This document shows, piece by piece, positions 17,181-49,180 of a DNA stretch of 64,000 bases. Position 1 is the stretch's first letter; the number at the start of each line of letters is the position of its first letter. Made by a program: the position numbers and the translations under genes. The notes under the pieces were generated by a model. That model made no database searches. It saw nothing but the letters and a program-made list of their open reading frames with translations, and was not told the DNA's origin. This DNA is from a phage: assembly GCA_026209155.1 (NCBI GenBank), contig GCA_026209155.1_3056.1; one strand, 5' to 3'.

Positions 17181-18299
17181 ATGGAAAAATTTATGGCAGA
17201 GTTTGGACAAGGATATGTCCAAACGCCATTTTTATCGGAAAGCAATTCAGTAAGATATAAAATAAGTATAGCGGGTTCTTGCCCGCTTTCTACTGCAGAA
17301 GGACCATACGTTAAATTTCAGGATAATCCTGTTGGAAGTCAAACATTTAGCGCAGGACTTCATTTAAGAGTTTTTGACCCTTCTACAGGAGCATTAGTTG
17401 ATAGTAAGTCATATGCTTTTTCGACTTCAAATGATACTACATCAGCTGCTTTTGTTAGTTTCATGAACTCTTTGACGAATAATAGACTTGTTGCTATATT
17501 AACTAACGGAAAAGTTAATTTTCCTCCTGAGGTAGTATCTTGGATAAGAACCGCAGGAACGTCTGCTTTTCCATCTGATTCTGTATTGTCAAGATTTGAC
17601 GTATCATATGCTGCCTTTTATACTTCTTCTAAAAGAGCTATTGCATTGGAACATGTTAAACTAAGTAATAGAAAAAGCACAGATGACTATCAAACTATTT
17701 TAGATGTTGTATTTGATAGTTTAGAAGACGTTGGAGCTACAGGATTTCCTAAAAGAACATACGAAAGCGTTGAGCAATTTATGTCAGCGGTTGGTGGAAC
17801 TAATAACGAAATTGCACGTTTACCAACTTCATCCGCGATAAGTAAACTCTCTGATTATAATTTAATTCCTGGCGATGTTCTTTATCTTAAAGCACAGCTA
17901 TATGCTGATGTCGATTTACTTGCGCTTGGAACTACAAATATATCTATCCGTTTTTATGATGAATCGAATGGATATATTTCTTCAACACATGCTGAGTTTA
18001 CTGGACAAGCTGGGTCATGGGAATTAAAGGAAGATTATGTAGTTATTCCAGAAAATGCAGTAGGATTTACGATATATGCACAAAGAACTGCTCAAGCTGG
18101 TCAAGGTGGCATGAGGAATTTAAGCTTTTCGGAAGTGTCAAGAAATGGAAGTATTTCGAAACCTGCTGAATTTGGTATCAACGGCATTCGTGTTAATTAT
18201 ATCTGTGAATCTGCTTCACCTCCAGATATAATGGTACTTCCTACGCAAGCATCGTCTAAAGCTGGTAAAGTATTTGGGCAAGAATTTAGAGAAGTATAA
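17181..18299 (+). CDS. 35: Long tail fibre hinge protein gp35
   Basis: 372 aa as in T4; position after gene 34. Confidence 0.9.
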   Translation: MEKFMAEFGQGYVQTPFLSESNSVRYKISIAGSCPLSTAEGPYVKFQDNPVGSQTFSAGLHLRVFDPSTGALVDSKSYAFSTSNDTTSAAFVSFMNSLTNNRLVAILTNGKVNFPPEVVSWIRTAGTSAFPSDSVLSRFDVSYAAFYTSSKRAIALEHVKLSNRKSTDDYQTILDVVFDSLEDVGATGFPKRTYESVEQFMSAVGGTNNEIARLPTSSAISKLSDYNLIPGDVLYLKAQLYADVDLLALGTTNISIRFYDESNGYISSTHAEFTGQAGSWELKEDYVVIPENAVGFTIYAQRTAQAGQGGMRNLSFSEVSRNGSISKPAEFGINGIRVNYICESASPPDIMVLPTQASSKAGKVFGQEFREV

Positions 18300-18361: not shown

Positions 18362-19039
18362 ATGGCTGATTTAAAAGTAGGTTCAACAACAGGAGGCTCT
18401 GTCATTTGGCATCAAGGAAATTTTCCATTGAATCCAGCCGGTGACGATGTACTCTATAAATCATTTAAAATATATTCAGAATACAATAAACCACAAGCTG
18501 CTGATAACGATTTCGTTTCTAAAGCATCAGGTGGCACATATTTAAACAAAGTATCATTTAATGCAGGTGTACAAATCCCGTTTTCTAAAGACGGCGTAAT
18601 TCAAACAGGGAACATTAATGGTATTTTTCCTGGAGTTGATGATGGGGCCGATTTTACAGCAAACAACCTAGATATCGTTTCTTGGTATGGTGTTGGATTT
18701 AAATCTTCATCAGGTAATTCAGGATATACGATATCCATTAATACTCGTACAGGCACAATTAATACTAAAGGCGGTGTTTACGCCTCTGGACAAGTTCGTT
18801 CAGACATGGCTGCACCTGTTGCGGTTAACGATCTTACTCGTAAAGATTATGTTGATGGAGCAATAAATATTGTTACAGCAAACGCAAACTCTAGGGTATT
18901 ACGCTCTGGAGACACTATGACAGGAAATTTAACTGCGCCAAACCTTTTTTCACAGAATCCTGCGTCTCAACCTTCACATGTTCCACGATTTGATCAAATT
19001 GTTATTAAGGATTCTGTTCAAGATTTCGGCTATTATTAA
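18362..19039 (+). CDS. 36: Long tail fibre distal connector gp36
   Basis: 225 aa; position between 35 and 37. Confidence 0.9.
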   Translation: MADLKVGSTTGGSVIWHQGNFPLNPAGDDVLYKSFKIYSEYNKPQAADNDFVSKASGGTYLNKVSFNAGVQIPFSKDGVIQTGNINGIFPGVDDGADFTANNLDIVSWYGVGFKSSSGNSGYTISINTRTGTINTKGGVYASGQVRSDMAAPVAVNDLTRKDYVDGAINIVTANANSRVLRSGDTMTGNLTAPNLFSQNPASQPSHVPRFDQIVIKDSVQDFGYY

Positions 19040-26559: not shown

Positions 26560-26605
26560 GTAGTTGATAGTTGTATAGTACCACAGTATGCTTTGGTTGT
26601 AAACC
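26560..26605 (-). promoter_or_regulatory. T4-type early promoter for motA
   Basis: Minus-strand GGTTTAC-17 nt-TACTATAC, conserved leader, Shine-Dalgarno GGAG then motA ATG. Confidence 0.55.
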
Positions 26606-26623: not shown

Positions 26624-26655
26624 TGAAATAAAAAAGGGAGAGCCTCGGCTCTCCC
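26624..26655 (-). terminator. Rho-independent terminator downstream of gene 52 / small ORF
   Basis: Minus-strand GGGAGAGCC-GAG-GCUCUCCC followed by UUUUUUAUUU. Confidence 0.65.
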
Positions 26656-26660
26656 TAAAA

Positions 26661-26810
26661 TTACTGCATGACTGTGATAACTGTCATGATAACACGTTGA
26701 ATTCCGAACGCAAGAAGACCTCCTGCTACGGCTGGAACAACGCCTAAACCCGCTAGTAAAATGCCGCCAGATACTAATGCTGCGCTTGTAATACCTATAA
26801 ATGGACTCAT
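26661..26810 (-). CDS. Small hydrophobic Gly-rich membrane peptide (49 aa), not in ORF track
   Basis: ATG overlaps gene 52 stop (ATGA); hand-translated MSPFIGITSAALVSGGILLAGLGVVPAVAGGLLAFGIQRVIMTVITVMQ. Confidence 0.45.
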   Translation of the reverse strand: MSPFIGITSAALVSGGILLAGLGVVPAVAGGLLAFGIQRVIMTVITVMQ

Positions 26811-36629: not shown

Positions 36630-36902
36630 TTATTTAAAACGGATAGTCGAATCCTTGAAGAATAGACCAGAACACACGGTTCCTTCTACTTTCTGCCCAG
36701 TAGGTCCAATAGCACGAAATCCAGTATGCTGGAAATCATTTTCAGAGCAACCGAACCAATTATATCCAGTGATTTCAATATTAGTAAAACCACTTGAAGA
36801 CAAAACTTTGGTTGCATTATCGGCATCAGTACATCCTACTAAAGATACTGCTAATACTAATGCCGCGATAGAACGATTAACATATTTCATAATTTCACTC
36901 AA
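36630..36902 (-). CDS. Putative lipoprotein (signal peptide plus lipobox LVGC)
   Basis: 90-aa ORF, N-terminus MSEIMKYVNRSIAALVLAVSLVGCTDADN; followed by UUCG hairpin. Confidence 0.55.
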   Translation of the reverse strand: MSEIMKYVNRSIAALVLAVSLVGCTDADNATKVLSSSGFTNIEITGYNWFGCSENDFQHTGFRAIGPTGQKVEGTVCSGLFFKDSTIRFK

Positions 36903-37272
36903 ATTTAATGGCTTGAAGAAGACTAATAATTCTCAAGCGACTTCTTTCATCTTTAACTGTAAAAGAAAGAGGGTCACCAGATTTCATAGTGATGGTGCAT
37001 CCAAAATCAAAATCTTCTGTAACTTCTTCGAATAGGTCAAATTCTTCATCATAAATTAGAACATTACTCTGAAAACTGTGAAGAATTTTTCCATCATTTC
37101 CAGATGCTGTACTAATCACTGTAACATTATTACCTTTCATATCTTCAACGATAAATTCGCTTGTAGATATTACATTACTAATAGAACCATTCCTATAAAT
37201 AGCAGAAAATAGATATTTCTTTTCTTCACCTTCGCGAATGCGATATTTCTTACCGATTTTAAACATAATCAC
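36895..37272 (-). CDS. Hypothetical protein (39.x-like); start may be GTG or the third-codon ATG
   Basis: 125-aa ORF. Confidence 0.5.
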   Translation of the reverse strand: MIMFKIGKKYRIREGEEKKYLFSAIYRNGSISNVISTSEFIVEDMKGNNVTVISTASGNDGKILHSFQSNVLIYDEEFDLFEEVTEDFDFGCTITMKSGDPLSFTVKDERSRLRIISLLQAIKFE

Positions 37273-45093: not shown

Positions 45094-45564
45094 CTAGCGA
45101 TAAAAACCAAAATAACGATTAGCTTCAATAATTTTTCTTTCTTCTTCGGACATTCTCCAGCGTAGTCCAACATCAAAATGAGCCCAGACCATCTTAACAA
45201 ATGCATTTATATCTTTAATATCTTCAATAATGAATGTTTTACTTTTAAAAGGTTGACTCGCTAATTTAACTTTATCATCTTCAAACAGGTCAAAAAGACC
45301 ATATTCATGAGCTCTTTTATATCCTTTAATAGTTAAAGCTTCAGAAGAAGAAAATGGTGAATCAGTATTCTGCAAAATATCTTCAGTATGCTTTATAATT
45401 AGAATAACATTTTCTGGATATTTTCTTTCTTTTATATCTTTAATTAAAAGATCCGGATTTTCTGCTAAAGGAATAATTAATGAGCACTTTTTGTCAAGCG
45501 TATTTACTGATTTACCGTCTTTAGACATAAATTCTATTGAATATAGTTTTGCTACTTCAATCAT
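45094..45564 (-). CDS. Hypothetical protein (possibly mrh-like)
   Basis: 156-aa ORF. Confidence 0.5.
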
Positions 45565-47364: not shown

Positions 47365-47883
47365 TTAATAACCTCGGTCTTGACGAGCGAAGTTTTCAGC
47401 ATTTTTCAGATAATAAAGTTTAAAGATTTCTTCAGCCGTAAGACCGAGACCTTGGAACATGTTCAGAACGAAATGAAGAATATCAATCATTTCGAATTTA
47501 ATTTCCAACTGGTCTTGCGGAGACAAATCAGTAATTAGAGTTTCACGACGTTCACCATGTTGAGCTTTCCAAGGCTTCCATACAGCAGATGCATCTTTTT
47601 CGCCATTGCTCATACCGCCAAGAGAAGTTAGAAGTTCACGGAATTCATCGTCAATATAATCTTTCTGATTACGCAGCCAATCAACAACTTCACCTGCAGT
47701 AGCCAAATCATCAGGATGACGGTTATATTCAGGTTTATCTTTAGCTAAACGAACTTGCAGAGATTTCTGCATATCAAGCATAACCTGCAGTGGGTCTTTT
47801 TCATCACCGAGAATATCCCAGTATTCATTTTGAGCTTTATCAGCGCCTTCGATCAGTTGTGAACATTCATTAAAGTATGCCAT
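47365..47883 (-). CDS. 56: dCTPase/dUTPase gp56 (MazG-like), from internal Met MAYFNE; track ORF 47365..47976
   Basis: 172 aa from internal Met; MotA-type promoter lies inside the track N-terminal extension. Confidence 0.85.
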   Translation of the reverse strand: MAYFNECSQLIEGADKAQNEYWDILGDEKDPLQVMLDMQKSLQVRLAKDKPEYNRHPDDLATAGEVVDWLRNQKDYIDDEFRELLTSLGGMSNGEKDASAVWKPWKAQHGERRETLITDLSPQDQLEIKFEMIDILHFVLNMFQGLGLTAEEIFKLYYLKNAENFARQDRGY

Positions 47884-47917: not shown

Positions 47918-47942
47918 ATTATACAATAAATATATAAAGCAA
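47918..47942 (-). promoter_or_regulatory. MotA-dependent middle promoter for gene 56
   Basis: Minus-strand TTGCTTTA, 11-nt spacer, TATAAT, about 30 nt upstream of gp56 ATG. Confidence 0.6.
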
Positions 47943-47954
47943 TAAGGAGGACAT

Positions 47955-48155
47955 ATGGTGCAAAAATTAATGGCACTTGTTGATGCCATCAAAGGTAATA
48001 AAAAACGTATAGCTTTTACTATTTCTGCTATGATAGGAATTTTACTTTGGAATTTTGTTTTATCGCCAGTTGCTATTGCTCATGGCGTTAGTATTCCAGT
48101 AATTACTCTTGATACATTCGTAGATTTAGCATTTGCTTTAGTTGGGTTAATTTAA
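47955..48155 (+). CDS. Small hydrophobic membrane protein (66 aa) on the opposite strand between genes 56 and 61
   Basis: AGGAGG Shine-Dalgarno 5 nt upstream of ATG; two predicted TM segments; stop overlaps gene 61 stop. Confidence 0.55.
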   Translation: MVQKLMALVDAIKGNKKRIAFTISAMIGILLWNFVLSPVAIAHGVSIPVITLDTFVDLAFALVGLI

Positions 48156-49180
48156 ATCTTAGCATATTTAGATAGCCGCATTTTAGCCATCAACCCCTGC
48201 GCAATATTATTTTTCATATATTCCATAATTTGTTCAGGGGTTGCACCTTCCTTTCTAATCATATCATTGACATCTTTTGATTTCCAGGGAGATTTATCCC
48301 AAAACATAACCCTTTCTCCTGCATCAACTAATTTAGTCATTCGTTTAATAGTGTCAGGGTGACGAGGTTCATTATCTAAAACCCATACACGTCTATCTTT
48401 AAATGGAACAATTTCTAGGTCTAATTGACCACCCGTAATAGCTATACCATTTTCAATAAAAAGTGAATCTATAGGTCCTTCTAGAACATATACATCACCA
48501 TCTTTAACCCGTTCGACTCCATAAATTTTTGTTGCCTCAGGATAAGCTTTGATGGTGATATATTTTTGGGGAGCGTCTTTCTTTAATGCACGTCCTTGAA
48601 AAGACTCAGCTTTTCCATTAGCATTATAAATTGGAATAACAAGACGAGGCTCAGGTATTTCCTTTTTATATGTTCCTGGCGCTATGCTATTAACTAATTT
48701 AGGCCATTCGGTTGTAAACCAAAGATATTTCCATTTATCCTTTGGAATACAGCGAGCTTTTACGTATTTTATAATTGGATGGTCTTCCGTCAGTTTATCT
48801 AATCTAATGCATGACGGAAGAGATTTAATTATTTTCTTCTCGGGTTGTTTAGGAAGTTCTTTAGGTTTTTCTACTGGACGACTTTTACCTTTTTCTTTTC
48901 TTATTTCAAAGATATACTCACGATATAAATCAGGTTCAAACTCCTTTAAATATATTCCGATTGGTGCATGATAGTTACAGTTATAGCAATGAATATTTCC
49001 TTCATTATTATCACCATAATACCATCCACGGGCTTTATTTTGGTCGGTTTTTGAATCTCCACAAACAGGGCATCTAAACCGTAATTTAAAAGTTGAACTA
49101 TTATTTACTTGTGTAAATTTAGGTAAATGAGCTAGCGCACGATATGCAAACTCATTATCAATCCAAGGTATTGATGACAT
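48152..49180 (-). CDS. 61: DNA primase gp61
   Basis: 342 aa as in T4 gp61; zinc ribbon CPVCGDSK...CYNC and Toprim region. Confidence 0.93.
   Translation of the reverse strand: MSSIPWIDNEFAYRALAHLPKFTQVNNSSTFKLRFRCPVCGDSKTDQNKARGWYYGDNNEGNIHCYNCNYHAPIGIYLKEFEPDLYREYIFEIRKEKGKSRPVEKPKELPKQPEKKIIKSLPSCIRLDKLTEDHPIIKYVKARCIPKDKWKYLWFTTEWPKLVNSIAPGTYKKEIPEPRLVIPIYNANGKAESFQGRALKKDAPQKYITIKAYPEATKIYGVERVKDGDVYVLEGPIDSLFIENGIAITGGQLDLEIVPFKDRRVWVLDNEPRHPDTIKRMTKLVDAGERVMFWDKSPWKSKDVNDMIRKEGATPEQIMEYMKNNIAQGLMAKMRLSKYAKI

Follow-up and report, generated by a model that had tools for sequence, protein, structure and literature searches.

The question raised by this locus is whether the short plus-strand open reading frame (ORF) that separates genes 61 and 56 of a T4-like phage is a gene and, if so, what its product does. 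The ORF is present at 47955..48155 (+) of the window, i.e. the whole 64,000-nt stretch of phage DNA that was analysed, just as originally predicted, with the ATG at 47955, 66 codons, and the TAA at 48153-48155 included in these coordinates. The window belongs to a T4-type (Tequatrovirus) genome, and the region around the 66-aa ORF is 94-98% identical to many Escherichia/Shigella T4-like phages. Its convergent neighbour is gene 61 (DNA primase, 48152..49180, −; phrog_47, E=6.8e-107) and its divergent neighbour is gene 56 (dCTPase/dUTPase, 47365..47883, −; phrog_173, E=1.1e-46), the spacer between the two being 270 nt long. The start of gene 56 is placed at 47883 (−), and a 203-aa ORF with a GTG start represents an upstream extension of the same gene. 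The stop codon of the 66-aa ORF shares the tetranucleotide TTAA with that of gene 61, which confirms the predicted overlap of the two stops on opposite strands and sets its length at 4 nt. The ribosome-binding site also proved strong, being read directly as AAGGAGG at 47944..47950 (+); its distance to the ATG, however, is 4 nt and not 5 nt as had been claimed.

With respect to the strand setting, positions 23806-64000 form a minus-strand gene block of ~40 kb, and the plus strand carries tail-fibre genes and holin gene t at 13.3-23.8 kb. The 66-aa ORF lies on the same strand as these genes, i.e. the late-gene strand. The other plus-strand ORFs of at least 50 aa within the block, located at 26571, 45537, and 49942, have no credible family match and were rejected. 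Those at 45537 and 49942 also overlap real minus-strand genes, and the one at 26571, which starts with TTG, is spurious and overlaps the spot of a 49-aa ORF and a palindrome. Since the rest of the plus-strand ORFs are not credible, the claim that the 66-aa ORF is the only well-supported plus-strand gene of the block stands. The spot near 26571, situated between motA and gene 52, comprises an unlisted and very hydrophobic 49-aa ORF at 26661..26810 (−), which begins MSPFIGITSAALVSGGILLAGLGVV..., and an adjoining hairpin at ~26633-26657, a GC-rich palindrome that resembles a two-way terminator.

According to profile searches, the 66-aa protein belongs to PHROG 2024 (E=5.5e-30, residues 2-66 aligned to profile positions 1-65 of 65). 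Orthologues in this family include RB32ORF030w, annotated in its record as "similar to RB69ORF029w", as well as RB69ORF029w itself, VR7ORF033w, S16 gp16.1, and Moon gp35, and an annotated protein of phage BF15 is 100% identical to that of the window. The tblastn search found the protein in 693 phage records, 686 of which cover at least 80% of its length and 503 of which have at least 80% identity; a primase at least 95% identical to the window's is found in 502 records. Remoter copies (46-68% identity) come from Gaprivervirus VR7, vB_YenM_P8, and several viral and metagenomic contigs. A distant subfamily contributes 169 further records in Jiaoda-, Moon-, Gelderland-, and Kanagawavirus, with 22-34% identity to the window protein. 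Its members match PHROG 2024 with E=1e-24 to 1e-26, and hhalign links the two subfamilies with a probability of 98.3% and E=1.8e-14. Protein length varies from 63 to 69 aa across the family. A HMMER profile run against 1.84 billion representatives returned 6 proteins, all from the same family, and no bacterial or distant relatives. The search of T4-like genomes proposed along with the original prediction thus reveals a conserved protein, in 693 and 169 records for the two subfamilies. The novelty that the prediction implied is not borne out: the gene is an ordinary one, already catalogued as a PHROG family and listed under "hypothetical protein" by hundreds of records. No published literature on it was found.

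As for genomic position, the ORF lies on the strand opposite to gene 61 in every case and, in most lineages, directly adjoins the gene 61 stop codon or overlaps it. The same placement (opposite strand, 3' end of gene 61, gene 56 side) was found in the window, RB51, fPS-90, T4, VR7, metagenomic contigs, KP182, S16, Moon, and IME523. In VR7 a gap of ~200 nt separates the ORF from gene 61, and in vB_YenM_P8 an endonuclease gene lies between them. The gene is absent at the gene 61 position in three Tevenvirinae, namely Karamvirus ZX13, Krischvirus KFS-EC, and Serratia phage 92A1, and is therefore dispensable in some backgrounds. It is an accessory gene of T-even-type phages.

Regarding T4, the original suggestion that it has no equivalent at this position is wrong. 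An orthologous ORF with 91% identity occupies 17738..17938 of NC_000866, between dam and gene 61, and simply lacks annotation there; this record leaves 309 nt between the two genes (17626-17934) without any annotated feature. A newer, pipeline-annotated T4 record from the 2020s does have the ORF called. The exact protein of the reference T4 has no NCBI accession in a collection of 15 billion proteins. Kanagawavirus IME523 (NC_070777, locus 1456-1665) is a second RefSeq genome in which the ORF is left unannotated.

On the evidence of sequence comparison, the 66-aa ORF is established as a real gene that is coding, conserved, and syntenic. Ten lineages, representing at least seven named genera and three unassigned lineages, were compared frame by frame: the frame of the ORF has no stops in 10/10 of them, and each other frame is interrupted in most. 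Indels among relatives comprise whole codons only (1 or 3), and the numbers of variable alignment columns at codon positions 1, 2, and 3 are 47, 26, and 61 of 66, respectively. Between the window and T4 there are 10 synonymous and 6 non-synonymous differences (omega 0.16); between lineages, pS ranges from 0.56 to 0.85, i.e. synonymous sites are saturated, and pN ranges from 0.23 to 0.38. This substitution pattern is, as judged from the alignments, that of purifying selection. In addition, each of the 12 loci compared has a GGAG(G) motif whose end is 5-9 nt ahead of the ATG. Membership in PHROG 2024, selection, and the frame kept open together support the original prediction that the opposite strand carries a genuine gene encoding a small membrane protein.

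In T4, L016, and L013, antisense frame −2 likewise runs through the ORF without a stop, whereas the remaining seven lineages have 1-4 stops in it. It is probably a by-product of hydrophobic codon content and not a second gene. A minus-strand reading frame was also considered as the cause of the conservation and rejected, frame −2 being open in only 3 of 10 lineages. A search of the ORF region against Rfam at a permissive threshold yielded no RNA family.

The region upstream of the ORF contains signals on both strands. Gene 56 has a MotA-type middle promoter at 47918..47941 (−), read directly as TGCTTTA, an 11-nt spacer, and TATAAT; read on the minus strand, 47935-47941 give the MotA box and 47918-47923 the −10 element. 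The nearest base of this promoter is 13 nt from the ATG of the 66-aa ORF, close to the ~12 nt claimed, and the homologous site of fPS-90 is annotated as a predicted middle promoter. On the plus strand, late promoters were sought as a TATAAATA-type box spanning −13 to −6, which requires no −35 element. The canonical TATAAATA has no match within 400 nt of the ORF start in 13 loci; the variant NATAAATA emerged instead. In the window, the predicted gp55-type late promoter is the variant AATAAATA (A at −13, 7/8 match) at 47925..47932 (+), 22 nt before the ATG, and the predicted late start near 47938 would give a leader of ~17 nt. The window phage has no dam, and in it this box falls almost entirely within the 11-nt spacer of the middle promoter of gene 56. 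The back-to-back arrangement of expression signals suggested in the original prediction is supported.

The variant NATAAATA is kept in 9 of the 12 loci compared, and its background frequency is 0.5% of 45-nt stretches taken from the window sequence. Within the block, it stands upstream of only 2 of 68 minus-strand ORFs, one of them being soc, which is a true late gene. Considered locus by locus, the box reads AATAAATA in the window and in two metagenomic lineages, GATAAATA in T4 (at 17,709-17,716), CATAAATA in VR7-type phages and in KP182, and a perfect TATAAATA in IME523. It is more deviant in three lineages, with ATTAAATA in S16 and Moon and TATTAATA in L016. The closest box in KP182 precedes the ATG by no more than 12 nt, and transcripts initiated from it would lack part of the Shine-Dalgarno sequence. 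The stretch from the box to the ribosome site varies from lineage to lineage. When the sequences upstream of the ORF in T4 and the window are compared, homology sets in at the box, even though T4 has a different gene, dam, on its far side. The spacer between the ORF and gene 56 appears as an insertion hot spot, holding dam in T4, a homing endonuclease in many relatives, and other genes in some, and the small ORF with its upstream box survives every insertion arrangement (loci L002 of fPS-90, L003 of T4, L010, and L022 of vB_YenM_P8).

Across the 64 kb, AATAAATA occurs on the plus strand 3 times, at 18862, 23123, and 47925, where it precedes gene 37 (by 186 nt), the ATG of holin gene t (by 18 nt, with AAAGGAGG as the ribosome site), and the 66-aa ORF (by 22 nt), respectively. 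That all three copies precede plus-strand genes suggests that the variant is functional in the window phage. Of 50 T4 late promoters listed in PMC2988020, 9 have A at −13, more than have any other deviation, and the same variant is common in T4 relatives (Nolan et al. 2006, PMC1524935).

As for the time of expression, early and middle transcripts of T4 all have the polarity opposite to that of the 66-aa ORF (PMC2988020). Since transcription at these stages uses the other strand only, late expression is the best inference, and the ORF is probably transcribed late in infection, as far as promoter motifs and strand can indicate. For T4, a dRNA-seq study reported 150 phage start sites, 22 of which are antisense (10.1101/2024.04.04.588121). 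No sigma-70-like promoter was scored on the plus strand near the ORF start. Because no convincing plus-strand terminator was found after the ORF, transcription begun at the late box would proceed antisense into gene 61. Elsewhere in the block, a perfect TATAAATA at 37194-37201 (+) falls within a minus-strand ORF (36895..37272). It has no plausible plus-strand ORF downstream and may be an antisense late promoter.

Alternatively, an unrecognised plus-strand promoter could direct synthesis of the membrane protein early or all through infection, the protein then serving Imm/Sp-like exclusion or host take-over. The ORF does sit among early accessory genes, some of which are envelope-directed (the Sp gene is 1.8 kb away), and its late box is only a variant. 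This reading is, however, unlikely, given that neither a sigma-70 nor a MotA-type promoter is seen upstream on the plus strand, that the late-type box is the sole conserved upstream element, and that the polarity of T4 early and middle transcripts is the opposite one.

Late transcription being the preferred reading, the properties of the protein come next into question. The original prediction described two hydrophobic segments, and both are present; only the first (~residues 19-42), however, scores as membrane-spanning. A crude Hessa-scale sum amounts to about −0.9 to +4 kcal/mol for segment 1, near 0 and thus predicted to insert, and to +5 to +12 kcal/mol for segment 2, which is predicted not to insert in any lineage and is especially poor in the distant subfamily (e.g. 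LPPMPLEKVV). The AlphaFold2 model, built from a shallow alignment, has a mean pLDDT of 80 and helices at residues 2-12, 16-42, and 52-62. According to both, a single span followed by a short amphipathic periplasmic tail is more likely than the two membrane segments originally proposed. In all lineages the N-terminal flank carries a charge of +2 to +5 and the tail 0 to −2. From these data we infer a protein of the inner membrane with one span and N-in/C-out topology.

The predicted layout starts with a cytoplasmic amphipathic N-terminal helix and a basic KGNKKR cluster, followed by the transmembrane helix at ~19-42, the centre of which holds an invariant Trp-Asn-(Phe/Tyr). A Pro/Gly turn would then mark the periplasmic face, and a periplasmic tail of ~22 residues, predicted to be amphipathic and acidic (neutral in some lineages), would complete the protein. 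W32, N33, P38, G44, and P48 are invariant in the family, A40 is nearly so, and position 53 is always Asp or Glu. Small residues make up 5-9 of 19 positions of the membrane helix. The last 22 residues are hydrophobic and acidic, with a net charge of −2 and no basic residue, and end in ...ALVGLI. The conserved Asn in the middle of the membrane points to helix-helix association. Neither Pfam nor NCBIfam has a match to the 66-aa protein, and the best match of a sequence profile search against PDB, YejA with E=0.05, is noise. A Foldseek comparison of the AlphaFold model with viral models retrieved only its own family at E<=0.001, plus weak hits to 63-aa T4-like proteins.

Residues 1-42 could also be regarded as a long signal peptide, cut after A40-I-A42 to free a hydrophobic and acidic periplasmic peptide of 24 residues. 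Signal peptidase I substrates were taken to have a basic n-region, a core of 7-15 residues, and a small-x-small pattern at −3/−1, and all 10 lineages indeed combine the KGNKKR n-region and a hydrophobic core with Pro at −5 and a small-x-small pattern (A-x-A or A-x-T). The core, however, is ~20-24 residues long, which is the length of a signal anchor, and it holds the invariant W-N-(F/Y), an odd feature for a signal peptide that is to be discarded, so that a secreted peptide precursor seems quite unlikely.

Retaining the single-span reading, we consider it reasonably probable that the product is a late inner-membrane protein that acts by binding a partner and thereby modulates a late membrane process. 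In the proposed sequence of events, gp55-RNA polymerase would start at AATAAATA and AAGGAGG would drive translation. The single-span protein would then bind another membrane protein or itself, helix to helix, through the conserved W-N-(F/Y) face and the short periplasmic tail, and this binding would tune a late membrane-associated process. Partner binding is proposed because the protein is too small to house an enzymatic domain and carries a polar Asn in mid-helix. The leading candidate for the process would be control of lysis timing or envelope integrity, in the sphere of holin T, RI, or the spanins; prohead assembly at the membrane would be a weaker one. A lysis-timing or envelope role is a guess that builds on the timing signals, the membrane location, and a promoter and ribosome-site layout like that of gene t. 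More specifically, it is rather doubtful that the protein is a late component of the T-even programme of lysis, lysis inhibition, or envelope control, e.g. a modulator of holin T or a membrane-active factor.

Among the known members of this programme, the antiholin RI binds holin T through a periplasmic domain of ~70 residues. The ORF product resembles RI and other small bitopic phage proteins in its predicted N-in/C-out single span, the enrichment of small residues in the membrane helix, and likely late expression. In contrast, it is not homologous to RI, and its tail is much shorter.

A terminator-like hairpin of 10 pairs with a T-run was found at 47962..47992 (−), inside codons 3-13 of the ORF (the scan match covers 47992..47967 plus the T-run), and in fPS-90 this hairpin is annotated as a terminator. 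It is predicted to end gene 61 transcripts after an antisense run across the ORF. The hairpin is conserved in Tequatrovirus only; L018 carries another hairpin, and none is present at the VR7-like and L013 loci. Being kept in Tequatrovirus alone, it was rejected as the cause of the conservation of the ORF. In this genus, the same 31 bp (47962-47992) encode residues 3-13 on one strand and form the terminator-like hairpin of gene 61 on the other, and a similar peptide is encoded in the genera where the hairpin is missing.

Such an arrangement would suit a type I toxin-like peptide gated by antisense RNA, which would be made only as early and middle transcription fades. Gene 61 mRNA is predicted to run antisense over codons 5-66 and to end at the hairpin in codons 3-13, and the product is small and hydrophobic, so that the ORF shares with the Hok/TisB/Ldr class a small hydrophobic peptide whose coding region lies under an antisense transcript. 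Unlike in that class, however, the antisense RNA would come from gene 61 read-through, as the 3' portion of an mRNA, and not from a dedicated antisense RNA gene, and the overlap is not conserved: the position of the hairpin is not kept beyond Tequatrovirus, and the ORF is parted from gene 61 in VR7 (~200 nt) and in YenP8 (endonuclease gene). With 63-69 aa, a conserved cytoplasmic helix, and a tail, the proteins of the family also exceed typical type I toxins in size and structure and have conserved soluble flanks. Finally, strand polarity already accounts for late-only expression. Antisense gating of a toxin is thus very unlikely.

The partner-binding reading has further to be weighed against the possibility that the protein is itself a holin or pinholin, forming membrane lesions at the end of infection. 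The labels "Holin" (OE5505, UniRef) and "putative holin" (KP1079) are attached to family members, and the protein is small, membrane-embedded, and probably late, with a polar Asn and many small residues in its membrane helix. Its gene also parallels holin gene t in having AATAAATA at a similar distance from an ATG with a strong ribosome site (22 nt and AAGGAGG versus 18 nt and AAAGGAGG), in being on the same strand, and in encoding a small membrane protein. However, holin T is already present in the window (Pfam Phage_holin_T, E=7e-117), and it differs from the ORF product in having 218 aa and a large periplasmic domain in place of a ~22-residue tail, with no sequence similarity between the two. 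No holin family of Pfam or NCBIfam matches, no membrane span is predicted for the second segment, and the C-terminus is hydrophobic and acidic, in contrast to the charged hydrophilic tail typical of holins. As for the labels, they are unreferenced, automatic, and few among hundreds of "hypothetical protein" entries, and a holin function therefore seems highly improbable. The weakest alternative, namely that the 61-56 spacer is regulatory DNA only (a gene 61 terminator and gene 56 promoters) with an accidentally open frame, could appeal to the minus-strand hairpin and middle promoter in or beside the ORF, to the missing annotation in the T4 reference, and to the antisense frame −2 that is stop-free in 3 lineages, but it is effectively refuted by the substitution pattern, with the protein conserved despite saturated synonymous sites, and is next to impossible given also a frame open in 10/10 lineages from at least seven named and three unassigned groups, a conserved Shine-Dalgarno sequence, a hairpin restricted to Tequatrovirus, and the negative Rfam result.

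A partner-binding membrane protein made late thus remains the favoured reading of the 66-aa ORF. In terms of genome organisation, it is a rare clockwise gene within the counter-clockwise early region, and with the putative late promoter inside the middle-promoter spacer, a single stretch of 24 bp would serve transcription in either direction, at different times. The RefSeq record of T4, the reference phage of this group, does not include the gene, which is clearly under purifying selection and occurs in about as many records (503) as the Tequatrovirus-type primase (502), and in at least seven named genera of enterobacterial T4-like phages. Current understanding is unchanged by the analysis, the family being already catalogued. 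Lysis regulators have come from the class of small late membrane proteins, which makes the gene a cheap knockout target. If the proposed role in the lysis or envelope programme is true, its product would be a new player in one of the best-studied phage systems, missing so far from the T4 gene list.
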